A stretch of 64,000 nt of DNA from Spirochaetia bacterium (GTDB taxonomy: Bacteria > Spirochaetota > Spirochaetia > SZUA-6 > Bin103). This document shows, piece by piece, positions 1,231 through 48,398 of the stretch. The stretch spans positions 4,736,001 through 4,800,000 of the forward strand of contig CBDBDQ010000005.1 in NCBI GenBank assembly GCA_965203905.1, given 5' to 3'. Made by a program: the position numbers and the translations under genes. A model generated the notes under the pieces. That model made no database searches. It was not told the origin of the DNA and saw only the letters and a list, made by a program, of their open reading frames with translations. Each line of letters opens with the position of its first letter. Within the stretch, counting starts at the first letter, position 1.

Positions 1231-1249
1231 GGGGAGTCGGAGATCGGCC

Positions 1250-2647: not shown

Positions 2648-2723
2648 TGTGACGACCGCAGGAGGCAGCCCGTTTGCTGAGCAACGACGACCTGACCCGG
2701 CGGGTGTTCCCACCCCAGAGCGC

Positions 2724-3638: not shown

Positions 3639-3652
3639 AAGGCGATGTTCTG

Positions 3653-29549: not shown

Positions 29550-30003
29550 TTTGCCGAATTACGTGGCTCTGTATTGGCCAAAAAATGTCTCGGACCCCTT
29601 GACACGATTCTCCAGCACCTCCCTACTAGTCCTGGAGTCGCTTCTGGCAGTCCGGAAGCTGGTGGCGTAAGCCACCGGCCCTCCGGGGAGAGCGCGCAGC
29701 AGGCCCACCTCCCGGTTAGAATAGTAAGTGAGGCAGAGCCGCTCACCGATGCCCACAGCCCGTCTCGGGAGTCTGAAGTGTTACGAAATGGCTGTGGATA
29801 GCGGGCAGAACGCCCCACAATGGCCCTCCGCGCCTCTATCTCAATGAAAAGCAGGGGGGCGGCCTCTCCGCGAGGTCAAACACTTGGTCTGCGCACCTGA
29901 ACACCAAGCTGCGCACCCGCTACAAGCCGGATAGACAGCCGCAGCGCTGAAGCAGTATCCTGCCTGCAGGGGCACCGAGCACGTGTAGGCTTGTGTATAC
30001 GAT

Positions 30004-30675: not shown

Positions 30676-30749
30676 GTGAACGGCTCTGAGTGAACGACAG
30701 ATGATGCGGCTCTGCGCGGGCTGGCGTGTGCCGACATGTGTCGACAAAT

Positions 30750-30956
30750 ATGGATACCCCTCAGCCCCCTGCGAAACGGCCAGAACCCCTTACAGAACCA
30801 GAGGAAAAGGAAGGCGTAATTAACTTGAACGCAACACAAAGAACGCCAGAACCGGGCGCATCCTGTGGTTCCGGGTGAAGGTCCAGGGCATGTCGACACA
30901 TGACGCTTGGGTCTCGATCTTCCCGAACGCCGGCAAGAACCGCCTGCAGCATCCAG
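30750..30956 (+). pseudogene. Diverged, frameshifted duplicate of the 5' 200 bp of 30004-30675
   Basis: Colinear match from ATGGATACCCC to CAGCATCCAG with mostly third-position changes and indels. Confidence 0.85.
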
Positions 30957-31670
30957 TCTCAGGCGTCTCGCGCCGCGCGGTTGCATCCGGTATACTCACG
31001 ACGATCAGCGCTTCCGCCGGCCCTGGTTCCTTTTCTGTCGGGGCTCTGGTCCGGGTGCCCGTTGAGTTGCGGAAACGACACTCGGGCACCTGTTCTTTTC
31101 TCCAGCGGGAATCGCCGCTCCTGTAGCCACGGCGCGCTGGCAGCGCTGAGGTGGTGCCCATACACCATCTCGCACGTGTGACGGCTCCTGGGGCGCCTGA
31201 GCGACTGGGCAAGCAGCGAAGGCGGCCCGGGGGTCCCCACCGGGACCTCCCCTTGCTACTTCTCACCGATACCCAGGACGCAAGCTCGATGGCGGTGATG
31301 CGTTGGTTCAGGACGAACGTGGCGTCGCCGGCCGTTCAAAGCGCCAGTCGTTCTGGTTGGGCATCGTTCCTTAGACGCGAAAAGCCGCCTCCCCCCGACA
31401 CTCGGCAGGGGAAGGCGGCAGTTACGGAGGGGTGTTACCCCAAGCACAAGCCTATCGGTGTGCGCCGGGGCACGGCAAGTAGCGGGCGGAAGGGACAAGG
31501 TGGGAGGCCCGCCCGCGATCCACGGGGTACGGCTCCCACGTCCGCAGCTCCGGGATTCGCCGCGGCGAGGGCCTTCGATCATCCCAGTTCGCGGCAACGC
31601 AGCCGCTCCAGGCGCTCGGTTTCGGGTGGGAGGCCATCCCGCTGTCGGCCGCCCTGGTCTCCCACCAGGT

Positions 31671-32771
31671 TCAACCAGGTGCGTCTGCAGTCGACGGGCC
31701 CGCGCGCCCAGGCGGCTCGGTTTCGGAGTCAGGTGGGGGATCATCCCGCGAATCCGCGGGTTCGACCGACACCAGCATGGGCGGTGGTGCCATGTAGGGC
31801 ACGTGCATCAACTCCGCGGCGCGGCGCTTGGCTTCCTCGGGGCGGCGGTCATAGCGCTGGGTGGTCTGGACGTTCGCGTGCCCCGCGAGCTGCTGCACAC
31901 TGGAAATATCGGCACCGGCATCGAGCATCTCGCCGACGAAGCTGCGGCGCAGGTCGTGCGGCGAGAACTGTTTGATGCCGGCGAGCTTGGCGAGGTAGCG
32001 CAGGCGCTGCATTACCGCATGGGCGGTCATGCCGCGATGCTGGATCTTCCCGCCCTTGGCGACTGGCACCAGGAGCGCACCCGGCCAGAAGCCGCGCCGG
32101 GCGAGCCACGCATCGACGGCCTCGCGGCCGCCGGTCGGTGCATAGACGATTCGTTCCTTGCGCCCCTTACCCCGGCGCACGGTAACCGCGCCGTCGTCGT
32201 AGTCGTCGAGTTGGACGGTGACGACCTCGCTGCGGCGCAACCCGCAGCCGTAGAGCAGCGCCAGCATGGCGGCGTCACGGGCGCCGACAGGCGTGTCCTC
32301 GCAGAACAGGAACAGCCGGCGCACGTCGCCGACGTCGACGTGGCGGCCAGCCGGCAGAGTGCTCGCCGGCACGTTCTTCACGTTGACGATGCGCGTCATG
32401 GTATCGGCGTCGATCTGTTCGAGGTTGAAGGCTTCCCTGGCCACGCCGCGCAAGGCCGACAGCAGGTGGTTGATCGTGGCCGGCTTGGCACCATCCTCGA
32501 TCAGCCGTGAGCGCAGCGCCGAGACATGCTGATAGCGTATCTGGGGCCAGTCCACGGCCAGGGCGTCGATGGTAAGGCCCGCGGTGAGGATCTCGGCCGC
32601 GCGATTGAGTGCGCGCTCCAGGCCGCGGCGGCCGACCGCGGACGGCTTGCCGGCCAGGTAGACGGAGGCAGGGTTTTCGTCGAGCGGTCCCGGATCGGCC
32701 AGGACCGGAACCGGCGCGGCCGCGGCCGGCGGTTGCGCCTGGGGAACGACAGCGGGCGGCAGCGCCTTCAT
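31671..32771 (-). CDS. Tyrosine recombinase/integrase (XerC-like)
   Basis: GARDAAMLALLYGCGLRRSE, GKGRKER, PHDLRRS, LAGHANVQTTQRYD; start MKALPP coupled to the upstream stop. Confidence 0.92.
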   Translation of the reverse strand: MKALPPAVVPQAQPPAAAAPVPVLADPGPLDENPASVYLAGKPSAVGRRGLERALNRAAEILTAGLTIDALAVDWPQIRYQHVSALRSRLIEDGAKPATINHLLSALRGVAREAFNLEQIDADTMTRIVNVKNVPASTLPAGRHVDVGDVRRLFLFCEDTPVGARDAAMLALLYGCGLRRSEVVTVQLDDYDDGAVTVRRGKGRKERIVYAPTGGREAVDAWLARRGFWPGALLVPVAKGGKIQHRGMTAHAVMQRLRYLAKLAGIKQFSPHDLRRSFVGEMLDAGADISSVQQLAGHANVQTTQRYDRRPEEAKRRAAELMHVPYMAPPPMLVSVEPADSRDDPPPDSETEPPGRAGPSTADAPG

Positions 32772-33070
32772 GCCGCACCCCGCCGTCGCGGCCGCGGCTC
32801 GGCGGGCGCACGGCGCCGCTGGATGATGCCGACCATGGTACCCTGCGTGGTGCGGGCGGTAGCGATCGCCGCCGTCGTCATTCCGTCCAGTGTAGCATCG
32901 ACCGGCAGGCCCGCACTCAGATAGCCGGCGCGCAAGTGGCTCCACCAGCGATCGCCGCGCGCCTCGCGGTGCGCGTACAGCGCGTTGACGCGCCCGATCT
33001 GGTGCGCCAACTGGAGTGCGGTCGGCATCCAGGGTACCCGCTCGGAGTACCGTAGTCTCTTGGTGCTCAT
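32768..33070 (-). CDS. Hypothetical phage protein
   Basis: AGGAGG RBS, MSTKRLRY start, stop overlaps the integrase start. Confidence 0.6.
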   Translation of the reverse strand: MSTKRLRYSERVPWMPTALQLAHQIGRVNALYAHREARGDRWWSHLRAGYLSAGLPVDATLDGMTTAAIATARTTQGTMVGIIQRRRAPAEPRPRRRGAA

Positions 33071-33127
33071 GTGTGAAAACTTCCTCCTGTAGATGTTTTC
33101 GGCACCCCGGCTGGGGCGCAAGGGTAG

Positions 33128-33195
33128 GGCGAGCGGGCAGGGCTCGAACCTGCCGGCGGGGTCATTGACCCGTCTCTCCAGCAGAACCTCTCGCC
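33128..33195 (-). ncRNA. tRNA-like element A (68-nt atypical cloverleaf)
   Basis: GGCGAG/CTCGCC closing stem; TTCT-GCTGG-AGAG D-like arm; GGGTC-AAT-GACCC arm; GGCAGG-TTCGAGC-CCTGCC T-arm; no encoded CCA. Confidence 0.7.
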
Positions 33196-33222
33196 AAGGG
33201 AACGGGGGCGCGTCCTGGCCTG

Positions 33223-33528
33223 CTACCGGAACGCACGATCCCAGCGCCGTGCGGCGATGCGGGCGCGCTGTACGCGGCGCCAGCCCCAGCCATAGGTGCG
33301 GTGCCAGCGGCGGCACGCGAAGTAGCCGCAGCCGACGACGATCGGCGTGGTCGGTGCCGCGCCTCTGGCGACGCGATCCCGGAGGATCATGCGCCAGCCG
33401 TCGAACTCGCGGTGCCAGCGCAGCCGCGTCACATCCCAGGCCATCACCTGCAGCAGCGCAGCCGCGTAGGCAGCCGTGGCGGCCACCAGCAGCACCGGCG
33501 GCGCCGCCCAGGTCAGATCAATCAGCAC
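33223..33528 (-). CDS. Hypothetical membrane protein
   Basis: AGGAGG RBS, GTG start, N-terminal TM segment. Confidence 0.55.
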   Translation of the reverse strand: MLIDLTWAAPPVLLVAATAAYAAALLQVMAWDVTRLRWHREFDGWRMILRDRVARGAAPTTPIVVGCGYFACRRWHRTYGWGWRRVQRARIAARRWDRAFR

Positions 33529-33734
33529 GGGTGTCCTCCTGCCGGCCCGGGCGGCCCGGGAACGGGACACGCGGTAACGGGCGCCTGCCGTGCGCGCCCG
33601 TGGTAGGGTGGGGTGGGTCATGACCTATCGCCTTCTGGACGAGTAAGCAGCCGCACCAGGAAGCGGACGGCGACCCACACCAGGAGGGCGGCAGCCGCGA
33701 TGGCTGCCGCCCCCAGGAACAACTCCGCCACCGG

Positions 33735-34214
33735 CTACTTGGCGTCCAGCGGCGGCGCCTCCCAGCCTTCCGGGAGCTGCTGCGTCTCCGGTCCGCGCTC
33801 CCACACCACCGGCTGGCTGTCGGCGGCCGCGGCGGCGATGGCCGCGGCGAAGTGGGCGTCGAGGTCGACGTGCACCGGCAGCGGCACGGCATCCGAAGCC
33901 GCCAGATCCAGGCCCAGGTCCGCGAACGGCGCGCCCCAGGGATCCACGGACGGCAGCACCAGCTCGGCGGCGTAGCCGTAGCCGTAGAAGGGATCGAACG
34001 GCAAGGCGTCCGGCCCCACGATGTCGGCCTGCACGTCGGCGACGGTGACGAAAGCGACGTCGGCCGGTGCTGCGTACAGCGCGGCGAGCGGGTCCCCGTT
34101 CCCCGGCGCCGGCGCGGCGTCCGACGTGGCCGGCGCGATCTCGTTGCCGGTGCAACCCATGACGAGGATCGCCACCAGGGCGATCACGATGAACGGTACT
34201 CCAAGCTTCACCAT
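33735..34214 (-). CDS. Phage lipoprotein
   Basis: MVKLGVPFIVIALVAILVMGC lipobox; AAGGAG RBS. Confidence 0.7.
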   Translation of the reverse strand: MVKLGVPFIVIALVAILVMGCTGNEIAPATSDAAPAPGNGDPLAALYAAPADVAFVTVADVQADIVGPDALPFDPFYGYGYAAELVLPSVDPWGAPFADLGLDLAASDAVPLPVHVDLDAHFAAAIAAAAADSQPVVWERGPETQQLPEGWEAPPLDAK

Positions 34215-34241
34215 GGAGCTCCTTGGCCGCAGTAGCGGCTA

Positions 34242-34291
34242 CGGACGGCGGGGGGAGTCGAACCCCCCGCTCGGGACCAACCCGGCGTCCG
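34242..34291 (-). ncRNA. tRNA-like element B (50 nt)
   Basis: CGGACG/CGTCCG stem; CGGG-TTGGT-CCCG D-like hairpin; GCGGGGGG-TTCGACT-CCCCCCGC T-arm. Confidence 0.72.
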
Positions 34292-34390
34292 GACACAGGC
34301 AGGGCGCCCCCGGTGTGCCTGAGGGCGCCCTGCAGGCGCGTGTCGTGCGGTGTGTGTGGTAGGTGCCGGCTGCCGGCCGGCGCGGTCTCT

Positions 34391-35308
34391 CTAACTCGGC
34401 TCCGCTTCCAGGTAGGCCACCACGTCCGACCAGCGGCGGGTCACGACCGAAAGCTGCTCGCGCTCGTCGTTCTCGCGGTCGGTCATGGCCAGCCACGCAT
34501 CCTCGTCGCGGTACTCGGTCACGGCCTCCCCGATCGGGTCCTGAATCACGCGCGGGTCGAGCGCATCCAACTCCCACGACTCCGCGCCGTAGCGGGCGAA
34601 GTACATCTCGTAGCGCGAATCACTGAGCTTCGCCGGGTTCGGCGGTGGCTGAAAGGTCTCGATCTGGTCGAAGTTGAGGGCCAGCCCGGAGCACCGTCAC
34701 GTCCTCGCGGGCGAACAGGCCCAGCCGCACGTCGTTGTCGCGGGTCATGTCGATGCCGCTGGGATCGTGGTCGCCCAGGTGCAGCACCACCACGTCCTGG
34801 CCGGCCTCGCGGTACTCGGCGAAGCGCTTGCCGGCCGCCCACTGCTCTGACTGGCTGACGTAGCCGCGGCAGGCGAAGAAATCCTCGTCCAGCCGGCGGC
34901 AGATCCGCTCACCACGCCGATCAGCGCTTCCTTCTCGATCCAGACCTCGACCCGGCAGGGCTGATTCTCCCACTTGTCGATGCGGAAGCTGCGCGCCGCG
35001 GCCTCGATGATGGCGGCGGGATCGTCCCAGTGTGGGTTGCTCTCCAGGTTCCTGGTGCGGTCCTCGATGGCGTTCCAGTCGACCCGGCCGGCCATGCGCG
35101 CCTCGCTGATGATGTTGCCCAAGCGCTTGTAGGAGCGCTGGGTGTTGGCGATCAGGTCGCGGGCCACGAACTGGTAATAGAGCTGGCGCAGGGTCAGCTT
35201 GAAGCCCTGCGCCGCGTACTCACCGATGATGGTGTTCGCCTGCTCGATGATGGCCAGCGACGAGGCGGCGAACTTCTTGTCGATGAATGCCTCGAATGCC
35301 GCGGTCAC
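34391..35308 (-). pseudogene. Topoisomerase VI A-like wHTH-TOPRIM protein (DUF2399-like), two frameshifts
   Basis: LTLRQLYY, VEVWIEKEAL, CRGY, HLGDHDPSG, WELDALDP spread over three frames. Confidence 0.75.
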
Positions 35309-35718
35309 TCGTCGCCCTCCTGCTTCGGCGTGAAGGTGAAGCGGCAGACCTCGCCGAACGTGTGGCTCAGCTCGCACCTGCCTGTGAAAGAATTGCCGGC
35401 GTCCTCGGCGCGGCCGTAGGCTTCGAGTACTTCGCCGATCAGGCGCCGGTCGCGGTTCGAGTACTCGATACCCTGCTCGGCGGCGGCCTCGATCCCCTCG
35501 ACCAGGGCGTAGCTGTAGTCGGCCTTGGTCTGGATCGTAACCGGGCAGTCGTAGGGAAGCTGGTCGGCCATCGCCAGCTTGCCGCGGCGCGCCGCCTCGG
35601 CTTCCATGCCGTCGGCGTAGCGCCACGCCAGCTCGATCTCGCCGGCTATGTCGAAGTTGGTGCGGGCGGCGATGATCCCCTGCAGGGCAGCCGCGGCGAA
35701 CGTCTCATGTCTTTCCAA
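35305..35718 (-). CDS. Hypothetical phage protein
   Basis: AGGAGA RBS, TTG start; FAAAALQG...AWRYADGM resembles a common phage early-protein motif. Confidence 0.55.
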   Translation of the reverse strand: MERHETFAAAALQGIIAARTNFDIAGEIELAWRYADGMEAEAARRGKLAMADQLPYDCPVTIQTKADYSYALVEGIEAAAEQGIEYSNRDRRLIGEVLEAYGRAEDAGNSFTGRCELSHTFGEVCRFTFTPKQEGDE

Positions 35719-35753
35719 AGTGTCTCTCCTGGTGGTGGTAGGTAGGTTCGGTC

Positions 35754-36737
35754 TCAGCCCCGCCGCAGATCGCGCAGCCGAAACACGCCGTCGGCGTTGA
35801 TGCGCCCCCGGTCCGCTGCCTCGGCGTAGTGCAACTCGCCATCGCTGGCCAGCACCTGCAGCGGGTAGCCGGGGGGCGATGTCAGGGGCGCGAAGCGCCG
35901 GGTTGCGCTGCGCATAGCGCGACGGGTAGCTGGCGGTCTCCAGGTCGGCGGCGTGGTAGACCAGGCGGAAGATGGCGACCTTGCCATCCTTGGTGCGCCA
36001 CAGGTCCTCAGGCGCGCTCATGGGCAGCCCCGCAGCGCCAGCGCGGCGCGGTAGCCGTCCAGGTACGCATGGGTCTCAGCCGCGGTGCCCTGGTAGAGCC
36101 ACTGGCCGCCTCGGGAAACGGTGTAGCCGGCGATCCCGGCGCCGGCGCCGTGCGGTTCGGTCTCGTCCCGGAGCCGGAGCTTGGCGGCCTTGTCGGCCAG
36201 GGTCCTGGTGCCGCCGGTCATTCTCGATGCTCCTCTTCCAGCAGCGCGGCGCGCGCGAGGCGGCGCGACTCGCGCAGCCGTTCCGCGCGCTCTGCGTGGG
36301 CGACCTTGAGCGCGTAGCCGATGTCGCTGAAGGCGAGCTCTGCGCACTGCAAGCACATCGGGCCGTACAGCCAGCCGTTGACCAGCTCGGCCGTGGCGAG
36401 GTTGCAGCGTACGCAGCGGGTCGTGTTCGCGGCGATCGCCCGGGCGTAGGCCTCGACGACCTCGAAGGCGCAGTCGCGCACCCGGTCGTTGCCGGCAAGC
36501 TCGTCGTGCAGCGCGCTGCGCAGGTCTCGGATGGTGCTCGCCAGATCAGTCATCCGACAGCCCCCACACGTCCCGCTGCCACTGCTCGGTGGGCATGTTG
36601 GCCATGGGCGCGGTCTCGACCATGGCGCGCTCGCGGGCGGCGCGCAGCGCGTTCGCATCGGTCAGCAGCTCGCGCTCGACCCGCTTGTTCTCGCGGCGCT
36701 CCTGGCGCCACCGTTGCGATCCTCTCGGGTTTGGCAT
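35754..36737 (-). CDS. Four small coupled phage ORFs (36737-36546, 36553-36218, 36221-36018, 36021-35754 with a frameshift)
   Basis: Overlapping start/stop codons and GC3-rich codon use. Confidence 0.55.
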
Positions 36738-36800
36738 AGGTTGTCTCCTCCGATCTTTCTGCGGCGGTCCTGGGAACCTTTGGAACGTGTCGCAGGAAGT

Positions 36801-36830
36801 AGGGCGGGCACCCCGAAGGGCACCCGCCTT
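36801..36830 (-). terminator. GC-rich UUCG hairpin after ssb
   Basis: AGGCGGGTGCCC-TTCG-GGGTGCCCGCCCT, weak U-tract. Confidence 0.45.
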
Positions 36831-36838
36831 TGTGGGAT

Positions 36839-37240
36839 CTAGCTGGCAGCGGCTGCCGGCTCCGCGCCGACGGAGTGGACCCCGGCGGCTTCGCGGGGCC
36901 GGTGCCGCACCGGCTGGAACTCCACCTGCTCGGCGACGATCACGACCTTGGCGCGCGCGTTGCCCTCGGTGTCCTCCCAGCGCTCTTGCTTCAGGCGCCC
37001 GACCACGCGGATGCCGCGCCCCTTGGCGAGGTGCTCGTGGCACACTTCGGCGAGCTTGCCCCAGGTCGTGGTCTCGATGAACGAGACTTCCTCGGTGCGC
37101 TCGCCCTGGCGTTCCGGGTCCCTGTAGGAACGGTTCGACGCCAGCACCAGCGTGCAGGTCGGCGTGCCCTTCGGCGTGTAGCGGAGCTCGGGATCTCGGG
37201 CGAGATTGCCCTCCAAGAGGACCGAATTGAGGTTGTTCAC
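36839..37240 (-). CDS. ssb: Single-stranded DNA-binding protein
   Basis: NNLNSVLLEGNLARDPELRYTPKG, WGKLAE, GRLKQERWE; no acidic C-terminal tail. Confidence 0.92.
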   Translation of the reverse strand: MNNLNSVLLEGNLARDPELRYTPKGTPTCTLVLASNRSYRDPERQGERTEEVSFIETTTWGKLAEVCHEHLAKGRGIRVVGRLKQERWEDTEGNARAKVVIVAEQVEFQPVRHRPREAAGVHSVGAEPAAAAS

Positions 37241-37328
37241 GTACAACCCTCCTGTGGCCATGGCTCATTCAGGCACCGGGCGGCCAATCCCGGCACGATA
37301 CGGGCCAGCTACGGCCCGTATTTCGCCA

Positions 37329-37604
37329 CTATTCGGCGATGGCTACCGTGACCCAGCCGCGCGCCGTATCGAGCGCAGCAGGCACGGTGCGGTGAGATTC
37401 GGTGCGGCAGTCGCCGCCGTCGCTGCGCAGCAGCATCACGGTGTACGGCCGGCGGTGCCGGCCCATCAGCAGTAGGTCGCTGCGCCACACCACGGCGCGC
37501 CGGTTGCCCTGGCGGTACACCAGGACCCGGCGCGGCGCGCGGGTGAAGCGCGCGGGTTCGCGGGAGAATTGCAGGCTCATGCCGTTGCGGATGGCGACCC
37601 GCAT
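37329..37604 (-). CDS. Hypothetical phage protein
   Basis: ORF coupled to its neighbours. Confidence 0.45.
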   Translation of the reverse strand: MRVAIRNGMSLQFSREPARFTRAPRRVLVYRQGNRRAVVWRSDLLLMGRHRRPYTVMLLRSDGGDCRTESHRTVPAALDTARGWVTVAIAE

Positions 37605-38021
37605 TCAGGCTGCCTCCGGCTGCCGCAGCAGCGCGCCGGCGCGGCGCAGCCGCTCGGTCACGGTCGTAGGCCCGATCTCCGCGTGGTCGTTCCAGGACGC
37701 GATCGCGTTCATCGGCAGCGTGCCCGGGTCGAAGTAATCCGGATGCGTCTCCAGGATTGCGTCGACCATCGCGCGTTGCGCGGTCTCGGTGATGGTTCCC
37801 AGCAGTTGCGGCGGCGCGCTGCGCCGCGCGGCGACGTGGATCGCCCCGGATGCGCACCAGCACACGGCGTCGTCACTGGTCGGTGCGCAGGGCACGTTGT
37901 CGGCGCCGCGCGCCGTGGAGAAGCGGCACCACCCGGTCTCGATGTACCGGGCGGCGCCGTCCAGGACCTCCGCTGCCGCTTCGCGGATTGTCTGAGGCTG
38001 CGGTTGCGCTACCATCACCAT
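37605..38021 (-). CDS. DUF6197-like phage protein
   Basis: GWCR...CWCASGAI...WNDH pattern; paralog of 40103-40594. Confidence 0.6.
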   Translation of the reverse strand: MVMVAQPQPQTIREAAAEVLDGAARYIETGWCRFSTARGADNVPCAPTSDDAVCWCASGAIHVAARRSAPPQLLGTITETAQRAMVDAILETHPDYFDPGTLPMNAIASWNDHAEIGPTTVTERLRRAGALLRQPEAA

Positions 38022-38760
38022 CAAGCAGCCCTCCGCGCCACGTAGGCGCCGAGCGGGTAGTCGGTGACCGCTGGGCGCCCCTGGCGCAGCCGGATCAGCT
38101 CGCGAAGGTGCCGGCGGATGTCGGCCTCGGTGTGGAACCGGGCCATGACCCATTCCGCTGCCGCGGCCTCCCAGGCGGCGCCGCCGGTGCGCTTGGCGCG
38201 CAGCCGCGCCTGCGCCTCGCAGCGCCGGAAGTACACCACGGTCTCGCGGTCCGCCTTCAGGGTGCGCTCGATCATGGTGACCAAGCTCGGCAGGGTGCCG
38301 TAGGCGGCCACGCCACGGGCGCAGCCGCGCTCGACCCGGCTGCCGTCGCGCATGGTCCAGACGGTGCTGTAGGTGCGGTCCTCGACCGTGACGGCCGCAG
38401 CGCGCAGCCGCGCCATGCGCTGCGCATCATCCAGGTCCTGCCTGATGAATCGCTGTGCCGCGGTCACGACAGCGACTCCGCTGCGTCGGCGTCGCCGCCG
38501 AGCGACCATATCGCGCTCGACAGGTTCTCGACGTCCTGATTGCGGTCCTCCAGGATCGACCGTGCCGCGCGCAGGATGTCCACGTCGCTCAGGCGCGTGT
38601 CGCCGCCGGCCTCGTAGCCGTCCAGGAACGGGCGCACCCCGGCAACCTCGCCGTGGTAGATGCGCTCATCGCCCCGGTACACGGCGCGCGCCGCGATCCC
38701 GTTCGGGTACGGCTCGGTCTCGACCCTCAGCCCAAGGCGGGCTGCCACGTCGTCACTCAT
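38021..38760 (-). CDS. Two coupled hypothetical phage ORFs (38760-38464, 38467-38021)
   Basis: GGAGG RBS, GTGA overlap; the first is paralogous to 36221-36018. Confidence 0.6.
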
Positions 38761-38810
38761 CGATATCCCTCCAGATCGCTCCGGCGCCCTGTAGCGCCTG
38801 CGAGCTATCG

Positions 38811-38855
38811 GCCGGCGGGGTGGTGTTGAACCACGCTCACGCTTGTCCCGCCGGC
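38811..38855 (-). ncRNA. tRNA-like element C (45-nt minihelix)
   Basis: GCCGGCGGG/CCCGCCGGC 9-bp stem stacked on GTGG-TTCAACA-CCAC T-arm; short GC-GTGA-GC linker hairpin. Confidence 0.68.
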
Positions 38856-38859
38856 GTTC

Positions 38860-39333
38860 TCATGCAAACCCTCCCAGCTTGCGCTCGGCCATGCTCACGA
38901 ATCCACGTCGCGCCACGATCACGTGGTCGTAGACGTCGATCTCCAGGGATTCGGCGCCGCCCAACAGCTTGCGGTTGATCCGCAGGTCGGCAGGGGAAGG
39001 CGCCGGGTCTCCGCTCGGGTGGTTGTGGACGACGATCATGTGCGGCGCCCCGGCAACCACTGCCGGGCGCAGGATCTCGGCGATACGGGTTGAGGCGGCG
39101 TTGACGGTGCCCTGGTAGACGGTCACTGCCTCGATCAGCTCTGACTTGTTGGTCAGCAGCAGCACCCGGAGTTGCTCTTGCAGCAGCCCCGTCATGTCTG
39201 CGCAGAACGCGGCGACACTCTCAGGGGTCATCAACACCGTGTCGCTGTTCTCCGCTCCCTTGGCCACGCCGTAGCGCAACGCGATCTCCCGCAGCAGCGC
39301 TTGGTTGTCCCTGAGAACTCCCAGCAGCTCCAT
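38860..39333 (-). CDS. RadC/JAB-domain protein
   Basis: QEQLRVLLL, GTVN, HNHPSGDPAPSPAD, DHVIV. Confidence 0.9.
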   Translation of the reverse strand: MELLGVLRDNQALLREIALRYGVAKGAENSDTVLMTPESVAAFCADMTGLLQEQLRVLLLTNKSELIEAVTVYQGTVNAASTRIAEILRPAVVAGAPHMIVVHNHPSGDPAPSPADLRINRKLLGGAESLEIDVYDHVIVARRGFVSMAERKLGGFA

Positions 39334-40103
39334 CAGTCCAGCTTCTCGCTTGGCAGCCGGATCTCGCTGCTCATGCACTCGCGCATTCCCATGACTCCGC
39401 CGTCCGCCATGTAGACTTGATCGCCCTCGATCCGGGTGACGGTGCGCCACTGGTGACCGTTCATCGTGTCCAGCACGCGGTCACCAACCGCCACCACCAC
39501 CTCACGCTCGTCAACGACCTCGGGCGGCGCGTCGCGCTCATCGCGCTCCGGGCTCGCCTCGCTCGCGTTCCACTCGCCGCTGCGCGTCCAGGTATCGGCG
39601 GCGCGCTCCGCATCGGTGTAGTGGGAGAACTGCTTGGTATGGCGATGCTCTGGCAGCGTGTTGCGGTCCAGTACGTAGGCTTCCACGGTGTAGGTCCGCG
39701 CGACCATCGCCGGCGACAGGCGCCGCTCGTTGGTCGCGAGCGTAGCGTTGCGCCCGGTCTCCCATGAGTCCGACACCCACCGGACGCGCGGCGCAGTAAG
39801 GTCGCTCATCACGTGGCCCGGCACGAACGTCTCGTCGGCAGTGTCGCCGCAGTACAGCTCGATCATGTTGGCGATCTGCTTCACCACGCCGTGGCACTCA
39901 TGCTCGGCTGCGATCGCCTGCGCCGCCTGTAGGACGTGCAGGTCCTTGATTCGCGGGTCCAACACCAGATCCTCGATGCGCTCCGGGAGCGCTGCGTTGA
40001 GCGCATCCCGGAGTCCCTCTGCCTCGCGCCGAGCCACCAGGATCGACACGTTCGGTACGTTCAGGTTCACCCGCCCGTTGCCGTGTACCGTTGCCGTTGC
40101 CAT
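39333..40103 (-). CDS. Hypothetical phage protein
   Basis: 256-aa ORF with GGAGG RBS, TGATG-coupled on both sides. Confidence 0.7.
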   Translation of the reverse strand: MATATVHGNGRVNLNVPNVSILVARREAEGLRDALNAALPERIEDLVLDPRIKDLHVLQAAQAIAAEHECHGVVKQIANMIELYCGDTADETFVPGHVMSDLTAPRVRWVSDSWETGRNATLATNERRLSPAMVARTYTVEAYVLDRNTLPEHRHTKQFSHYTDAERAADTWTRSGEWNASEASPERDERDAPPEVVDEREVVVAVGDRVLDTMNGHQWRTVTRIEGDQVYMADGGVMGMRECMSSEIRLPSEKLD

Positions 40104-40594
40104 CAGCGCCCCTCCTTCAGTCCGCGCTTCACCTCCGCGATGCGCTGCCGGATGTGGCGCGCTCCCTGGCGCAGCTTCCGCGCCGCCTGGCGCCCGTTCA
40201 CGGCCGTGTTGTCGTTCCAGTGACTCACGATGCGGGGCAGGTTGCTCATGGGGTCAGGCACCTGCCCCAGGATCACGTGTGCCGCGGCCCCGATCGCTCG
40301 CGCCCGTACCCGCGATGCGTCGGCCGTGCCGTCGGTCACCTCAGGCTCGCCGTCCTCGTCGATGTCCAGCTTGGTGTGCCCAAGGTCCAGCAGCGCGCGC
40401 TGGATGCCGCCACGCATGCAGAACCGCATCGCATCGGGCGACCAATAGTCGACCGCGCGGTTGCCCATCTGCGCCTCGACGCCGTGTGTCCACCCGCGCT
40501 CAACGCGGAAGGCGGCGCGTTCGAGAACCTGCGCCGCCTCCGTATCCCTGAGGATGCTGTCTTTGATCCCGTCGATGGTCTCTGCGCTCAGCAT
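40103..40594 (-). CDS. DUF6197-like phage protein
   Basis: GWT...FCMRGGI...HWND pattern. Confidence 0.6.
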   Translation of the reverse strand: MLSAETIDGIKDSILRDTEAAQVLERAAFRVERGWTHGVEAQMGNRAVDYWSPDAMRFCMRGGIQRALLDLGHTKLDIDEDGEPEVTDGTADASRVRARAIGAAAHVILGQVPDPMSNLPRIVSHWNDNTAVNGRQAARKLRQGARHIRQRIAEVKRGLKEGR

Positions 40595-41916
40595 CAGCAG
40601 TACCCCTCATGCGGTTCCCGCGAGTGCACGCACCCCGTCTCCTGGCACACCGGGCATTCCCAATCCTCTGGCGTTACGCCTGCGGCGCAGGTCGGGCACT
40701 GCGGGTCGTCCTCGGTGTGGTCGTAGTGGTAGGTGCACACCGGGAAGCCGAAGCGCTCGCCCGTCGCATCGCACCCACACAGGGTGCAGCGGCGCGGCTT
40801 CTCTTCCTCGCCGGTGTCGGTGTCGGTCGCCGTCACGGGTGGCGCGCTGCCGTAGCAGGCCGTTCCCATCACTGCGATGCGATGCACGCGGCTACCGTCC
40901 GCGAGCCGCCATGTCTGTTGACCGTCGACCGTGCCGAGCCGCTCCCCGTTCGCGTTCAACCACGCGATCCGCTGCTTGTCGTCAAGGTCCGTCCTGTTGA
41001 AGGTCTGCGCCGCCGTCACGCTGCCACCCCCAGGTCGACGTGGAAGCAGAACGGCTCGACGTGCTCAGCGCTGTCGTAGGCGACGATGAAGCGCTGCGCC
41101 ACGGGCGGCAGCATCGCGTACCGCGTCGTGCCCTTGGCGTCCTCATAGGTCAGCATGTCGTGGGTCACGCGCGGCGCGTACAGCCCAGCGTCCCGCGCTG
41201 CAAGGGCGATGGGGCAACGGCAAGCCGTCACCCCATGTCTGTACCTGTTGGCGTCGTCGATGTGCTCCTGCCGTACTTCGATGGTCAGCATGCCGGCAGC
41301 CCCGCAGCCTCACGGCCTTCCGGGAACCATCGCACCCGGCGCCCCTTGCCACGGGCGAGCATCGTGCCTGCGGTGTTGGACCGACAGGCCGGCAGGAACA
41401 CCGCCCACTCGCCCACCTGCACGCGGTCCGTGCCGGGTACACGTGCCGTTGCCATGCGCTGCGCGGCAGCCACGGCGTAGTCAAGCGCGCCGTAGACGGG
41501 GAGGTTGCGCCCCCCGCCTACGATCACGTGGTCGCCGATCCTCATGAAGCCGTCGCCCGTACCGCGCGCTCGACCAACCTGATGTCGCCGTCCGCCGTCA
41601 TCTCAGGCACGGTCTCCGTCACCACGAACAGGCCAAGCTCCTGAAGCTCCAACCCCGCCTGCACCCATGCGTCCGCGTCCCGCGCCGCACTCTCATCGTC
41701 CGATGCCTCGCTCAGCGCCGGCAGTTCCTCCGCCATCGCCGCGCCCCATCCGCGCGTCTCCACGATCTGCAGGGCTGCCCCTGCCTCGATGGGAGCGCTG
41801 TCGTCGTCTCCGCGCAGGCACCACGAATCGAGTGCGCGCGTTGCCGTCACCACGTTGCCGGCCTCGATGCGCCCGTCCACGTCGCCGGGCTGCACCCATA
41901 CCGTCCGTCCGTCCAT
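40594..41916 (-). CDS. Four coupled early ORFs (41916-41542, 41545-41285, 41291-41016, 41019-40594 zinc-ribbon)
   Basis: GGAGGT RBS for the first; overlapping start/stops; the last has several CxxC pairs. Confidence 0.65.
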
Positions 41917-41949
41917 CGTTACCTCCTGTCCCCTTCTGCGGGGAGGAAT

Positions 41950-42004
41950 GCGGCGCGCCGTGGGGTTGAACCACGTCGCTACTGCGAGCACCGGCGCGCG
42001 CCGC
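41950..42004 (-). ncRNA. tRNA-like element D (55 nt) in the operon leader
   Basis: GCGGCGCGC/GCGCGCCGC 9-bp stem; GCCGGTGC D-like segment; TCGC-AGTA-GCGA hairpin; CGTGG-TTCAACC-CCACG T-arm. Confidence 0.72.
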
Positions 42005-42196
42005 TGTCGGTCGATCTGTCTGCACCCCGTCACCCCTTCCGGTGTCGCGCTCTATCGGTCGGCACGTGGTGCGCCGCTCGCCGTCCGAAGTCGCATCGCG
42101 CGGATCGAAGTGAGGTCACGTCCCCGCCGTGCTCGGTTGGTGGTGGCGCGCGCTGCCGTTGCGCGCCTGCTGATTAGCCCTCCTGCGGAGACCCAT

Positions 42197-42258
42197 ACTA
42201 TGATCCCCACAATGCACATTGTCATAACTAAATTAAGGGTACTCAGGGACAAGATCAA
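42197..42258 (-). promoter_or_regulatory. Tandem sigma70-like promoters with an overlapping palindromic operator
   Basis: TTGATC-N17-TAATTT and ATGACA-N17-CATAGT in an AT-rich patch; ACAATG-CA-CATTGT at 42209-42222. Confidence 0.6.
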
Positions 42259-43200
42259 CTCCTTCAGGTGATTTTTTGAACAATCGGTCCAATTTCTGCG
42301 ATACGGGGCCGAGAACAGCGTTCACGCGGTCCATTCGCCCTGAATCGGCCTCGCGGTCCGCCTCGACGCGCGCCCCGCGGCGTCAGGATCTCGCGCTGCG
42401 CGCTGTGCTGTTGGTTGTACTACTGCTCCTGTGTAGGCCGGCGACGGCACGGCGCGGGTCACGGTCGGTCGTGCACCGGCACGCCGCCAGCAAGGCGCAG
42501 ATCGCCGGCGACGGCGGCGCTTCCGCTCGCGGCGCGGCTTGACGTGTATGCGTCAACCGACCCTCGATGCTCCCGGTGCCGGTGCCGGTGCCGGGGGCGC
42601 GGCACTCCCCTGCCGGAAAGCGAGTGCGCGCTCGGTAGCACGGTACCCGTGGTTGCTCGACCATGACCCTTCGCCGGCGCACGGTGCGGCGCGCCCCGCT
42701 CCCCTCACCCGCCTGTCGGCCAGTGCCGGCGGCGCTTCACTCCCGCCGGCAGCCCGGCGCGCCCTCGATGTCGTCCTCAGCGCCGCCTGGGTCACTGAAA
42801 ACCTGCGCCGCGACCCGCCAGTCGGCCGTGCAGCCGGCCTCCGACAACCCGGCAGCCGCTCGCCGACGCACTGCGGCAGCTCCCGGCAGGCCAACGTCGA
42901 CCGCCGGATCGGGTCTCGAACCGGCTCTGAACCGCCGGGATCGCCTCCTGAACCGGCCTCGACACGCCGTCGGCGCCCGTTACCGGGTCTCGACGGGCCA
43001 TCCGCAGCCCGATCGGCCGTGCTCAGGGCGACCAACGCCGTGCAGGCGCCCTTACGGCACGCTGTTCAGCGCTCCCGAGCGCCTTCACCGGCGCCCGATC
43101 CGGCCCGCGACCCTGTGTTTTGCGTGTGTGTGGAGGAAATCCGCATATCCAGCAGGGACCCCCGGCCCCCCACCCCGGCCCCCCTGTGAGTTCCCGCCCA

Positions 43201-43275
43201 CGGGCGGGAGGGAGTGGAACCCTCCACGTGCCCCTGCGACCGCCATTGCAGAATCGAGGGACCCATCCCATCCCG
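43201..43275 (-). ncRNA. Possible tRNA-like element E (75 nt)
   Basis: GGGA-TGGG-TCCC hairpin, CTGC..GCAG arm, GGAGGG-TTCCACT-CCCTCC arm; weak closing stem and a competing hairpin. Confidence 0.4.
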
Positions 43276-43362
43276 GCCGCGGACTGGGGCCCCACCTACG
43301 CCAGCAGAAAATCTTCAGGTGAAATCAGGGGTGGTTCGCGGGGCGTCTTGCGCGGGAACAGC

Positions 43363-44460
43363 TCAGCGGTGCGGCGTGGGCTGGCACTGCGCCAGTTGAT
43401 CCGCATGTTTCCGAAACGCGGTGAGGCGGTCGAGCCCTTCGGCACCCGATTCTATGGCGGCGTTCAGCGCCTTCATGCCTACTCCGGAGTCTGTAGAAGG
43501 TTCCGCTTGCGGTTCTACTATATTCCTACTATCCCTCCCGGAGGGAGGCAGTCCACATTCCCGCTGGGGTGGAGTACACTCTTCTGCCGGGGTACGCAGG
43601 CAGAGCTTCCAGCGACACACCGCCCGCCGGATCGGGCGAACGCTGGCCCAAACTATCCGGCGGGACAGCCAGCCATGCTCCCGCAGCCAGCGCAACGCCT
43701 TCGCGACCGCGGTACGGCCGCGGCCAGATAAGCGCTGTATGGTCGCCCACGCCACCTGGGTGAAGGCTGTCGCGCACTTCAGTGCTGAACGGCCGCGGCC
43801 GAGCATGGTGCGCAGAGCTGCCCACACCGCGCACACGGCGCAGCTACCGAGCAAGACGAGCATCAGCGGCAGTTCGACATAGGTACGCTCCAGCAGGAGT
43901 CGGTACTGTGACTCCTGCCCAGGGCGCCGTTCGACTTCGAGCACTCCCGCGTCCTTCAGTTCGTTGACCCGCTCTCGCGCTGATCGCTCGGAGCATTTCA
44001 GCGCGACGGCGATTGTCGAGACTGGCCCTGTCCAGGTGCGCGAGCTGCCGAAATCGTTGAACAGCAACGAGTACGCGCGCAGCAGCTTCGGTTTGTTGCG
44101 GAGCGACGCCGGGGCGTAGGTCTGCTTCGCAAGCACCCCTCGCCGCTCGCCAGAGAGCCAGCGCTTGGGCTCGGCATCCGGCGGCGCCTGCACGGCGTGA
44201 TTGCGCTCTCTCCTGGGAACATCCTCTCGCGGACCTTCTCGCAAGATGCGATCGATCTTCTTCTTCTCTACGCGCTCCCTGTGAAAAAACTTTCGCTTCC
44301 AGCGATCGATATTCCGACTCTTGAGAAGGCGCCGAACGTCTACCTCGGACCAGTCCTCGGTCACTGTATCGCGGTCACCGCCATCCAGCAGGCCGCTTCT
44401 GATAAGGAAATCACGGTAAGGCTCGATGAGGTAGATTTTGGGTATACTGAGACTCGTCAT
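43363..44460 (-). CDS. Phage replication initiator-like protein with two wHTH motifs
   Basis: STIAVALKCSERSARERVNELKDAGVLEVERR and ATIQRLSGRGRTAVAKALRWLREHGWL. Confidence 0.65.
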   Translation of the reverse strand: MTSLSIPKIYLIEPYRDFLIRSGLLDGGDRDTVTEDWSEVDVRRLLKSRNIDRWKRKFFHRERVEKKKIDRILREGPREDVPRRERNHAVQAPPDAEPKRWLSGERRGVLAKQTYAPASLRNKPKLLRAYSLLFNDFGSSRTWTGPVSTIAVALKCSERSARERVNELKDAGVLEVERRPGQESQYRLLLERTYVELPLMLVLLGSCAVCAVWAALRTMLGRGRSALKCATAFTQVAWATIQRLSGRGRTAVAKALRWLREHGWLSRRIVWASVRPIRRAVCRWKLCLRTPAEECTPPQRECGLPPSGRDSRNIVEPQAEPSTDSGVGMKALNAAIESGAEGLDRLTAFRKHADQLAQCQPTPHR

Positions 44461-45389
44461 CGGGGAACTCCTTGGATGACTACACGGCTACCCGTCCCGC
44501 GAAGACTTCACAGTCCTGGTGGGGTCGGTAACCATTCACACTTCTGGGCCGTCGGTGAACGCTCCACAGCCCGCGCCGATCTCCCTTCAGCGGATGCAGG
44601 GTGGTAGCCAAGCACGTCCATGTTGCCAGGCCGCTTCGCGCCCTAGAGGCAACAGAACCCGCCGCTGCCGCGGAACCAGGTCTGCAGACAGCCGTGAAGC
44701 CATCGGCGCGCTTATGCAGTGACCGCAGCGCGCTGTGCTTGATCCTCACGCCAATCGATTGTAACGAGAGACGATACAACTGCCCAGCCTATACTGGCGC
44801 AAGGAATTGCAGCCGGCGAATCGTCCAGAGTCGACGGCCAGTCGACGCCGCGCGACCCAGGGACCGATTGCCCGGCCACATCTGGTCTAATCGCGGCCGC
44901 GGCGGTCGACCGCAAGTCGATACGCCCGTCGAACCAAGCCGCAACTGACAAACGCTGGGAGCCGAAACCAGGGGCTCGGCGTGCGTGGTGGCGGGCACTT
45001 GGTCACGTTGCGCGGCAAGCGCTGGGAGCCGGCCGACGCGGATCCGCCCGGCCGCGAAGCTGCTTGGGTGCACGACATCCAGTCACGACATGGTTTGAGC
45101 ACCTGGAGCGGAGCCCGTCCGGCGTTTTAGGAAAGCGCGCTATGGTTCCAGTCTCACTGCTTTCGGAACAGCGCACGACGACGATACCAAGTCGCCCGTG
45201 ACACGCCCCGTCGCATTATGGAGCCGTCCAAGATGGCCCACTCATCGCTACGCCCTTGACCCGGCGCTCCAGCGGCTGCTAACGTTTAGGCGGTATGAAT
45301 GAATACTACCACGACGATAACGGCAGTTCCCGCATACTACTAGCTTTCGCTCCGCCCCGTATGGGCCGTTCGCCACAAGGCGGTTAACC

Positions 45390-46043
45390 ATGAGCCAGCC
45401 AGACGTAACCGCCCTCGTCGATAGTTTCATTGACTATGTGACGAAGATACGTGACCTAAATCAAATTATAGACGAACTGTTCCAGAATCCCTCCGCCCAA
45501 GACATCATGAACAACACCGCACCTAAATTCATGATGAAGATGAATGGGTTGGTCCTCAATTCCGTGATTGGAGCGATGAGTCGGATCACGGAACCCGCGA
45601 CGTCCCACGGGCACCAGAATCTCACTGTTCGAACAGTCGTGAAACGGCTAATATGGACCGATGGTCGAGGCTCTCAAGCGGAGCGAATAGCACAACGGTG
45701 CGACTGCTTTCATCAACAACTTAAGAAGGGCCGGGACAAACTGCTCGCCCATAATGATCTCCAGACCGCTCTTGCCGGTAAGCTGTTTCCGTTCCCACTC
45801 CCGCCAAGTATCGGCAAGGACGTAATCGTACAATTGGAGCTTCTCATCGAGCTAGCATCCGAGCAGTATGGATTATCCAAGGGACGTGTCGTCTTATGCG
45901 GTGACGAGCGGCAATTCATTAAAGCCCTGAATGATTCGTTGCTCTTTGAGCGCACTCTCAAGGATTGCAGACTACCGAGAGAGCTACGAAGCGACATGCT
46001 GGTGTGGAGATTAGAATCCGGCGAAAAACTTTTCGAAGCTTAG
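45390..46043 (+). CDS. HEPN-domain protein (AbiU2-like)
   Basis: RITEP...NLT and RDKLLAHND (Rx4-6H) motifs; helical, lower GC. Confidence 0.65.
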   Translation: MSQPDVTALVDSFIDYVTKIRDLNQIIDELFQNPSAQDIMNNTAPKFMMKMNGLVLNSVIGAMSRITEPATSHGHQNLTVRTVVKRLIWTDGRGSQAERIAQRCDCFHQQLKKGRDKLLAHNDLQTALAGKLFPFPLPPSIGKDVIVQLELLIELASEQYGLSKGRVVLCGDERQFIKALNDSLLFERTLKDCRLPRELRSDMLVWRLESGEKLFEA

Positions 46044-48353: not shown

Positions 48354-48398
48354 CTAAGTCCGCCGTCCGGGGAATGGTTGCGGTGGCAAGGAGCCCCA

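Follow-up and report, generated by a model that had tools for sequence, protein, structure and literature searches.

What are the four small tRNA-like structures found between the genes of an integrase-bearing island in a Spirochaetia bacterium, and what might they do to the transcript that contains them? The window, i.e., the whole 64,000-nt stretch of DNA analyzed here, was described in an initial annotation as holding a phage early operon punctuated by four such elements (E1–E4) and a weaker fifth (E5). The phage assignment is not borne out: there is no structural or packaging protein among the 37 window proteins compared with Pfam, one protein of ten has a PHROG match, and no relatives were found in phage, plasmid, and IMG/VR collections. 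The locus is an island of ~12 kb with integrase, SSB, RadC, and DUF6197 genes, while the remaining genes of its co-directional array match no family. The main features are as follows.

31671..33072, minus strand: tyrosine integrase, last gene of the co-directional array
33223..41916, minus strand: co-directional array of ~19 small genes
36839-37240, minus strand: SSB
37605-38018 and 40103-40594, minus strand: DUF6197
38860-39333, minus strand: RadC
42197..42225, minus strand: promoter-like site (ATGACA, 17-nt spacer, CATAGT), ~190 nt upstream of E4

The elements and the hairpins that flank them are all on the same strand.

33128..33195, minus strand: E1, the most tRNA-like element; 8-bp acceptor stem with one A.G mismatch, D-like segment with GG, 5-bp hairpin with a 3-nt loop at the place of the anticodon arm, 6-bp T-arm with loop TTCGAGC
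33102..33119, minus strand: 7-bp GC hairpin 3' of E1 (dG -13.9, z -2.8), before a Shine-Dalgarno site and ATG 33072
34242..34291, minus strand: E2; 6-bp acceptor stem, small D-arm-like hairpin with a TTGG loop, 8-bp T-arm with loop TTCGACT
34293..34345, minus strand: strong GC hairpin directly upstream of E2 (dG -36 to -39, z -4.7 to -6.3)
34226..34239, minus strand: 5-bp hairpin after E2, followed at once by a Shine-Dalgarno site and ATG 34214
38811..38855, minus strand: E3; 9-bp acceptor stem, 12-nt inner segment, 4-bp T-arm with loop TTCAACA
41950..42004, minus strand: E4; 9-bp acceptor stem, 4-bp inner hairpin, 5-bp T-arm with loop TTCAACC
43201..43275, minus strand: E5; loop TTCCACT, tRNA-Sec match of 21.3 bits (E = 2)

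A hairpin scan and a descriptor search place E1–E4 exactly where they were initially annotated, on the coding strand, and recover the described fold, in which an acceptor-like stem stacks onto a T-arm whose loop is TTCRANN. The scan (stem of at least 4 bp) finds eight TTCRANN-loop hairpins on both strands of the whole window, four of which lie at 33136-33154, 34248-34270, 38820-38834, and 41959-41975, all minus. The descriptor, which demands a T-arm together with an acceptor stem no shorter than 6 bp, returns 41950-42004, 38811-38855, and 34242-34291 exactly, and also E1 at 33128-33195 when a 2-nt 3' spacer is permitted. Between 33000 and 43300 it detects four elements on the sense strand and none on the antisense strand, whereas 500 dinucleotide shuffles average 0.084 and yield at most one, never four; in the intergenic gaps alone (897 nt) the shuffle mean is 0.006 for the same four observed. 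The whole contig C5 contains 93 GG-TTCRANN-CC hairpins, 44 inside ARAGORN tRNAs and 49 elsewhere, and three or more of them occur on one strand within 10 kb at two places only, namely the island and its paralog.

Each element mimics the top half of a tRNA, with the acceptor-like stem coaxial with the T-arm (14, 14, 13, and 14 bp in total for E1 to E4), and most contain a small hairpin resembling a D-arm, with GG, the T-loop's partner in a tRNA elbow, in its loop. As first described, three of the inner segments (E1, E2, and E4) include the GG and that of E3 does not. All four are intergenic, and the gap to the next start codon, initially given as 28–58 nt, is 27–55 nt. The elements are not tRNAs: they lack a 7-nt anticodon loop, ARAGORN makes no tRNA call, and Rfam has no match to them at the gathering score, nor any match to Y RNA or tmRNA. 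Weak tRNA-type Rfam matches (tRNA-Sec, mascRNA) are limited to the elements and to the sense strand, with tRNA-Sec scoring 19.4 bits for E1 and 20.7 bits for E2. The elements indeed encode no CCA, but this is no departure from tRNA, because CCA is not encoded in the host tRNA genes either and its absence is normal here. E5 does not belong with the others; the descriptor finds no acceptor stem for it, a competing long hairpin is predicted, and there is no T-loop hairpin or weak tRNA match upstream of E4 in any of the three paralogous copies.

Three paralogous copies within this genome, as well as related islands elsewhere, have the elements in the same gaps between genes. In total, 26,346 nt from five independent related islands contain 11 on the sense strand and none on the antisense strand, all 11 between predicted ORFs, whereas 300 shuffles yield a mean of 0.27 and a maximum of three. 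A control set of 69 loci whose integrases are more distant (910,300 nt) gives 11 non-tRNA hits on each strand, that of the integrase and the opposite one, which is genome background; the elements are shown to be confined to this island family. E1 and E2 are both kept in P2 and C3. The position and architecture of E1 are common to L025, L026, L081, and L082, and E2 has counterparts by position, with unrelated stems, in L024, L025, L026, L078, L081, and L082. The site before the lipoprotein gene is represented by nine copies in three unrelated sequence subfamilies with one architecture. Weak tRNA-type Rfam matches are seen at other loci as well (27.7 bits in L082, 25.2 in L081, 25.0 in L001, and 22.6 in L078).

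Comparison of 26 instances indicates, in keeping with the initial annotation, that the T-loop is retained in homologs and that the stems differ in sequence from copy to copy without losing their pairing. The acceptor helices comprise 22 distinct versions and the T stems 16, and among 334 stem cells 315 are Watson-Crick and 16 G.U, leaving three mismatches. The T-loop is present in all 26, its invariance being partly circular since loop positions 1, 3, 4, and 5 are in the search pattern, and the inner GG in 21. The split between acceptor and T stem ranges from 4+10 to 10+4, with the total helix held to 11–14 bp (mean 12.85). Five loops read TCCGA, with C where nearly all tRNAs have U (pseudouridine 55); the E4 loop is TCCGACT in two of its four copies. 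In those four copies, 98.6% of 72 cells are paired, two pairs are changed on both sides, and four one-sided changes give G.U. Alignment of the four E3 copies reveals one compensatory change (G-C to A-U), two G.U pairs, and a single A.A mismatch. Compensatory changes occur in the E4 inner hairpin and the E3 acceptor, and also in the post-SSB T stem. Within the four close paralogs, covariation falls short of significance against shuffles (61/500 for E4 and 407/500 for E3, in which indels put the pairs out of register). A covariance model of one subfamily does not detect the others above noise, so that the "family" is defined by architecture rather than homology. The E2 region as a whole (folding z -5.5) is more conserved than its flanks, with mean column identity of 87%, and the 29 nt 3' of E2 are invariant in the three copies in this genome, which also keep the strong hairpin upstream of E2. 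We are highly confident that the elements are real, selected, tRNA-like structures of the sense strand.

Every element lies 19–58 nt from a Shine-Dalgarno-plus-start pair, and in 25 of 25 instances a hairpin starts 1–9 nt past the element and is followed by the Shine-Dalgarno site and start codon. These hairpins sit in GC-rich, readily folding sequence (z at or below -2 in 10/25), and many of the copies are paralogs. The hairpin after E1 has a counterpart of other sequence in all six E1-type copies. E1 is 55 nt upstream of the integrase start; E3 begins 4 nt past the stop codon of RadC, with 50 nt between its end and the next start codon; E4 is part of the first gene's 5' leader, and ATG 41916 follows 33 nt later.

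The elements are structured parts of the sense transcript of the island. We favor, by inference and with about even confidence, the reading that E1–E4 are cis-acting tRNA-like processing or stabilizing signals for RNase P and RNase Z. The elements would be recognized by the host tRNA-maturation enzymes as resembling tRNA, with RNase P cleaving at the acceptor stem's 5' end and RNase Z past the unpaired base that follows the 3' strand of the stem. The cuts would either divide the long transcript into individual mRNAs or provide the upstream 3' end with a tRNA-like cap, and the downstream piece would start a few bases before the GC hairpin preceding each Shine-Dalgarno site. The host has RNase P RNA (218 bits), RNase Z (333 bits), and two genes of the CCA-adding family. 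Points against this reading are the TCCGA loops, the missing GG of E3, and the helix length, which is 13–14 bp in 17 of the 26 instances although RNase P and RNase Z gauge 12 bp in tRNA; with the same scoring it is 12 bp in 25 of 35 host tRNAs.

If this reading is correct, the elements are a bacterial mobile-element functional counterpart of the t-elements of plant mitochondria. These t-elements (Forner et al. 2007, PMC1920247) were discovered by a GGTTCRANYCC screen, their ends coincide with mapped mRNA termini, they are proposed or shown to direct cleavage by RNase P and RNase Z that sets the ends of mRNAs, and non-templated C or CCA is added to them. The island elements resemble t-elements in being non-canonical tRNA-like structures with the GGTTCRANYCC T-arm motif inside mRNA leaders or trailers rather than tRNA genes; they differ in lying in a bacterial integrative island, several per operon and each coupled to a hairpin and a Shine-Dalgarno site, in mostly having no anticodon arm, and in being known from sequence where t-elements have mapped ends. 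The best weak Rfam match of E2 (23.1 bits) and of the E1 copies in L081 and L082 (24.4–24.5 bits) is mascRNA/MEN-beta (RF01684), which likewise joins a T-arm to a small acceptor and reduced inner arms; these scores are far under the 42.5-bit gathering score and imply no homology. mascRNA is excised by RNase P and RNase Z from a long transcript, in its case a vertebrate nuclear long non-coding RNA rather than that of a bacterial island. Animal mitochondrial polycistrons, P1 C4, and P4 CI share the proposed principle of tRNA-shaped signals by which RNase P and RNase Z cut a long transcript. However, the mitochondrial punctuation consists of real tRNAs, and P1 and P4 each mature a single regulatory antisense RNA, whereas the island has many non-decoding mimics between protein-coding genes. 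The tRNA-like domains of YrlA Y RNA and tmRNA share with the elements the mimicry of the acceptor/T-arm/D-loop elbow without a decoding anticodon, but the island elements are not free-standing genes, and no TROVE/Ro60 domain is present among the 37 window proteins scanned. Structured intergenic sites in a co-directional early-type operon are also known from phage T7; there, the RNase III sites are long double-stranded hairpins without a T-loop or tRNA mimicry, both of which the island elements carry, and the processing role is here proposed.

Two alternatives at the RNA level appear unlikely, to a similar degree. The RNAs could themselves be the product, with excised mini-tRNAs of 35–75 nt accumulating, perhaps with CCA added, and acting in trans as elbow or acceptor decoys or inhibitors of tRNA-binding host proteins (e.g., tRNA-targeting defense nucleases, modification enzymes, or the CCA enzyme). 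Consistent with this, each island has several different elements, all with the elbow-forming parts; SSB, RadC, DUF6197, and the ParB-like protein encoded in L081 are of the kinds that mobile elements carry for establishment in a new host; and a 179-nt contig from an RNA run (34214-34382) is centered on E2 and its flanking hairpin. The run consists of assembled contigs, which cannot show RNA ends, its other contigs cover coding parts, and DNA carry-over is possible. On the other hand, elements without an anticodon loop cannot decoy anticodon nucleases, none of ten island proteins has a PADLOC match, and the tie of each element to a downstream hairpin, Shine-Dalgarno site, and start codon fits a role in cis. 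Alternatively, the structures could act in cis without being cut, blocking 3' exonucleases or RNase Y, insulating cistrons, or positioning ribosomes at the next Shine-Dalgarno site. RNase Y is present in the host, and RNase E/G and RNase J have no match there, which makes decay control based on structure plausible; the intergenic position close to the next start also agrees with such a role, as do plain stable hairpins in other gaps of the same operon (e.g., after ssb, ~36770-36810). A plain hairpin would suffice for these functions, though, and the constant T-loop, the GG loop, and the fixed helix length with a varying split are left unexplained.

It is rather improbable that the elements are DNA-level signals of a mobile element, such as a single-strand initiation site or origin, a single-stranded promoter, or a tyrosine-integrase recombination site, which would in this version have a 7-nt loop between inverted arms. 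SSB, RadC, the ParB-like protein, and the integrase suggest a single-stranded or recombination stage, E1 adjoins the integrase gene, and T-arms are classic integrase targets. However, the 16 G.U pairs compared with one A.C place the fold on the sense strand, while the template strand is where a single-stranded promoter would form. The 5' and 3' strands of the acceptor co-vary, for which a double-stranded att site has no need. Elements do not match host tRNAs beyond 19 nt of the T-arm, E1 is unsplit in every chromosomal copy, the island ends have no direct repeat of at least 12 nt, and gene-content differences between copies start elsewhere than at the elements. Least probable is that we are observing decaying tRNA genes or captured tRNA fragments without a present function; the cloverleaf-like layout still visible in E1-type copies and the tRNA-clan scores of 19–28 bits would fit decay, but 331 of 334 stem cells remain paired despite sequence divergence, strand and position are kept across genomes, the E2 region is better conserved than its flanks, and similarity to host tRNAs is restricted to the T-arm.

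The promoter-like site lies within the only AT-rich stretch and is the sole such site in 11.7 kb; alone it is not significant, because shuffles yield a mean of 0.9. The integrase copy in the window has a 330-bp N-terminal insertion relative to its paralogs, and its conserved ATG 33072 does not share the reading frame of the long ORF.

The four tRNA-like elements E1 to E4 lie on the sense (minus) strand of a ~12-kb locus, here called the island, which carries genes for an integrase, SSB, RadC and DUF6197 proteins. When the window was scanned for TTCRANN loops closed by a stem of 4 bp or more, eight hairpins were returned, four of which coincide with E1-E4 on the minus strand. A stricter structural pattern (the descriptor) demands a T-arm together with an acceptor stem of 6 bp or longer and tolerates no more than 45 nt of insert and 2 nt of 3' spacer; it recovered the coordinates of E2, E3 and E4 exactly, and those of E1 when the spacer was 2 nt, which confirms the four strong elements at the places assigned to them in the initial annotation.

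Features of the island and its upstream neighbor (window coordinates; each hairpin has a counterpart at the same place in related loci)
31671-33072, minus strand: tyrosine integrase at the downstream end of the island (Pfam)
33102-33119, minus strand: hairpin after E1
33128-33195, minus strand: E1
34226-34239, minus strand: hairpin after E2
34242-34291, minus strand: E2
36839-37240, minus strand: SSB (Pfam)
38774-38809, minus strand: hairpin after E3
38811-38855, minus strand: E3
38860-39333, minus strand: RadC (Pfam)
41923-41948, minus strand: hairpin after E4
41950-42004, minus strand: E4
within the island, minus strand: two DUF6197 proteins (Pfam)
43363-44460: HTH_36 protein, just upstream (Pfam)

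Between 33000 and 43300 the descriptor matches four times in the sense and never in the antisense orientation, compared with a mean of 0.084 and a maximum of 1 in 500 dinucleotide shuffles; the equal frequency in shuffled sequence that would have counted against the initial annotation is thus not seen. When the 897 nt of gaps are considered alone, the four elements compare with a shuffle mean of 0.006. Contig C5, of which the window is positions 4736001-4800000, contains 49 GG-TTCRANN-CC hairpins outside tRNAs, and three or more of them on one strand within 10 kb are found only at the island and at its paralog at 1.93 Mb. The proposed weaker fifth member, E5 (43201-43275, minus strand), is not supported: its loop is TTCCACT, it lacks an acceptor stem and is predicted to compete with another hairpin, and the paralogs have no counterpart. 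At permissive thresholds it scores 21.3 bits against tRNA-Sec.

The genome containing the window measures 7.99 Mb with 66% GC, and the DNA runs in which the stretch is found are sponge, coral and marine metagenomes. GC content is 68-71% at 32-44 kb versus about 51-66% elsewhere in the window, and GC3 and ORF analysis places all genes at 32-44 kb on the minus strand. Apart from the proteins listed, the small island proteins have no match in Pfam; ten island proteins gave no match in NCBIfam and none in PADLOC, and only one of ten matched a PHROG, itself of unknown function. Among the 37 window proteins scanned, Pfam identifies no phage structural protein (capsid, portal, terminase and tail hallmarks were sought), and no relative was found in phage records, plasmid records or IMG/VR. 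Consequently, the designation as a phage early operon was dropped and the locus is called an integrase-bearing island. No direct repeat of at least 12 nt was found between the island flanks.

Several features of the region stand apart from the elements. In the integrase region (31671-33161, minus strand) ATG 33072, the conserved start, does not share the reading frame of the long ORF, and compared with its paralogs the copy in the window contains 330 bp inserted near the N-terminus; a gene at about 34391-35300/35310 (minus strand) is missing from the paralogs and broken across several frames. The odd integrase frame and insertion and the split gene could be pseudogenes or assembly indels. Upstream of the operon, 42052-43362 belongs to a stretch of 1.3-3.4 kb across copies that lacks any ORF bearing the coding GC3 signature; its counterparts lie at about 1030-3500 in locus L001 and about 500-3900 (reverse strand) in locus L002, conservation between copies is poor, and the one patch of the island that is AT-rich (42190-42330) lies inside it. 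Just past the integrase end there is a direct repeat of 224 bp with 87% identity (30002-30224 and 30748-30970). The surroundings (13724-14899, 26114-28575, 45390-46043, 46649-47308, 48378-50465) form a patchwork of further genes of mobile or symbiosis type, namely a second integrase, ankyrin/collagen-repeat, pentapeptide-repeat, AbiU2-type HEPN, DUF772 transposase and D5_N primase-like genes.

Three further copies of the island occur in the assembly at 72-91% identity (C5:1.925-1.934 Mb, contig C3 and contig C4), and in this assembly E1 and E2 are each present in three copies and E3 and E4 in four. A profile search with the integrase yielded 52 loci in genome contigs and 25 in metagenome contigs, among which L024 and L025 (from one genome), L026, L078, L081 and L082 share island genes. 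In five island-sharing loci (26,346 nt) the descriptor finds 11 sense and no antisense elements, all 11 located between ORFs; the mean over 300 shuffles is 0.27, and none exceeds 3. A further 69 loci (910,300 nt), whose integrases are more distant, yield 11 matches on each strand, which is the background level, and the elements therefore belong to the island family and not to integrase neighborhoods in general. The positions are reused: elements precede the integrase in seven copies, follow radC in four, occupy the operon leader in four, follow ssb in three and precede it in one, and the position before a lipoprotein gene is filled in nine copies by three unrelated sequence subfamilies.

Further copies of the island were also sought. 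No relative of the 98-aa protein encoded downstream of E3 turned up in the genome contigs searched; a DNA search of 24 genomes of the family detected only RadC similarity and one 31-nt E3-like match (genome G008), and four further integrase loci in the family are without the island. An exact 20-nt search with the E2 trailer produced one match, in an Acidimicrobiaceae MAG, which was judged to be due to chance. DNA runs X1-X3 contain many divergent variants over 31000-44600, with hundreds of contig pieces 85-99% alike and contig joints that skip whole genes, and the island family is thus abundant and mosaic in these communities.

Pooled over the copies there are 26 instances, which were read by coordinates in a script; pairs across subfamilies were likewise counted by coordinates because MAFFT alignments misplace the 3' acceptor strands. 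Their acceptor helices come in 22 different sequences and their T stems in 16, and the 334 stem cells include 315 Watson-Crick pairs, 16 G.U pairs and 3 mismatches. The stacked helix is 11-14 bp long (mean 12.85), with the split between acceptor and T stem ranging from 4+10 to 10+4; host tRNAs scored in the same way have 12 bp in 25 of 35 cases. All 26 instances have a T-arm whose T-loop is closed by G-C and which is stacked on an acceptor stem, and the loop reads T-[T21/C5]-C-[G19/A7]-A-N-N, the second base being C in 5, where some positions are partly fixed by the search pattern. The inner segment contains GG in 21 of the 26 instances, usually within the D-loop-like loop of a small hairpin, and E1-type copies carry a short hairpin with a 3-4-nt loop at the place of the anticodon arm. 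Within the close paralogs, 98.6% of E4 positions pair; two pairs have both partners replaced, and four changes affect one partner only and yield G.U; this covariation is not significant by a shuffle control (61/500), and that of E3 is blurred by indels. A covariance model, R1, built from four type-B copies scores its own members at 72-79 bits, and E4 (14.9 bits) and E2 (8.9 bits) lie amid GC-rich noise.

The elements are not ordinary tRNAs. ARAGORN calls no tRNA in the window and none of the elements in nine related loci, its sole call there being an unrelated tRNA-Trp (L024 16419-16491, 5.4 kb downstream of the integrase), and in that locus Rfam at the gathering score reports no tRNA. Nor does Rfam report anything at the elements at the gathering score, in the window or in related loci, so that the prediction of no strong match to a tRNA or a known RNA family is borne out. 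At permissive thresholds the tRNA-type matches in the island are confined to the elements, E5 included, on the minus strand: E2 scores 23.1 bits against mascRNA and 20.7 bits against tRNA-Sec, and E1 19.4 bits against tRNA-Sec, whose best scores over the window and related loci are 19.4-27.7 bits compared with a gathering score of 47. A canonical tRNA gene was rejected since no ARAGORN-detectable cloverleaf with a 7-nt anticodon loop was found and tRNA-clan scores stay below gathering; mascRNA-menRNA (RF01684) was rejected at 23.1-24.5 bits versus the required 42.5. The absence of CCA noted earlier is correct, as none of the elements encodes it, but it is uninformative because the tRNA genes of this host do not encode CCA either.

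All 25 of 25 instances have a GC hairpin that begins 1-9 nt past the element, and next come a Shine-Dalgarno site and a start codon. These hairpins vary in sequence between groups, and their z-scores are modest (10 of 25 reach -2 or lower); in this genome, E2 also has a very stable hairpin directly ahead of it (z -4.7 to -6.3). There is a promoter-like site about 190 nt upstream of E4, and no intrinsic terminators are predicted at the elements.

The host carries RNase P RNA (gene at C5:53500-53920), RNase Z (C5:4130348-4131247), RNase Y and two genes of the CCA-adding family; RNase E/G (PF10150) and RNase J (TIGR00649) have no match in the genome, which is 98.7% complete, and the lack of a match does not prove that they are absent. 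Because the stack of acceptor and T stems together with the elbow is what RNase P and RNase Z read, these enzymes could recognize the elements, and recognition would direct cuts at the element borders or cap the 3' end of the upstream RNA. We infer, as the best reading, that the elements act as RNase P/RNase Z cut sites or as 3'-end caps. Four runs were compared with 31000-44600, all as assembled contigs that carry no ends, strand or level; those of the one RNA run cover 20 of the 30 bins, including E2, which is not proof of transcription.

Rival readings were rated less likely. If the elements were single-stranded DNA signals of conjugative elements, for a promoter or for initiation, the fold would be needed on the template (transferred) strand; the 26 instances contain G.U and A.C in a ratio of 16 to 1, and this excess, obtained with a scan that allowed G.U and not A.C, would favor a fold on the sense strand, that is, in RNA. 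Decaying tRNA genes are another rival. As for att sites that originated from host tRNA genes, matches to host tRNAs reach at most 18-19 nt and cover the T-arm only, without the acceptor strand, which argues against att-site relics. Among readings that keep an RNA, the elements might remain uncut as stabilizers or insulators, or the mini-tRNAs might act in trans as decoys. The decoys enter a joint reading in which a family of mobile elements carries a portable expression module (mini-tRNA, hairpin and Shine-Dalgarno site), uses the host's indispensable tRNA-maturation enzymes to punctuate its operon, and releases CCA-tagged mini-tRNAs as trans-acting elbow mimics against host tRNA-binding defense or maintenance proteins; taken as a whole, we consider this combination improbable.

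Signals shaped like tRNA that direct processing within mRNAs are established in organelles and in a few eukaryotic long non-coding RNAs. To our knowledge, RNase P cleavage of bacterial operon mRNAs is limited to scattered cases, and a full-text literature search found no description of tRNA-like punctuation in bacterial islands or prophages. The t-elements of plant mitochondria were identified through the same T-arm motif and have ends that coincide with mapped mRNA termini (PMC1920247). The island elements resemble them in combining a non-canonical tRNA-like fold and the GGTTCRANYCC motif inside an mRNA transcription unit; they lie on the sense strand, between genes of a co-directional array. 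The islands would represent a bacterial mobile element with three to four such signals per operon, combining interchangeable stems and a constant helix length with a fixed partner hairpin and ribosome-binding site. If cleavage is confirmed, they would be, in bacteria, a natural parallel to the tRNA-spacer trick that releases multiple RNAs from one transcript, and a new case of a mobile element depending on enzymes its host cannot do without.

A separate motif occupies the gap just upstream of ssb (window 37258-37328, minus strand; L001 7031-7101; L003, another compared locus, 6477-6547). It resembles a type II hammerhead ribozyme at 19.1, 22 and 28.7 bits in the window, L001 and L003, respectively, all below the gathering score of 37; the GAAA box and the AUC cleavage triplet are present, and the CUGANGA box is one base too long. 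The 70 nt are 91-100% identical in four copies, exceeding their flanks, and if active the motif would be the operon's second type of RNA-processing signal.
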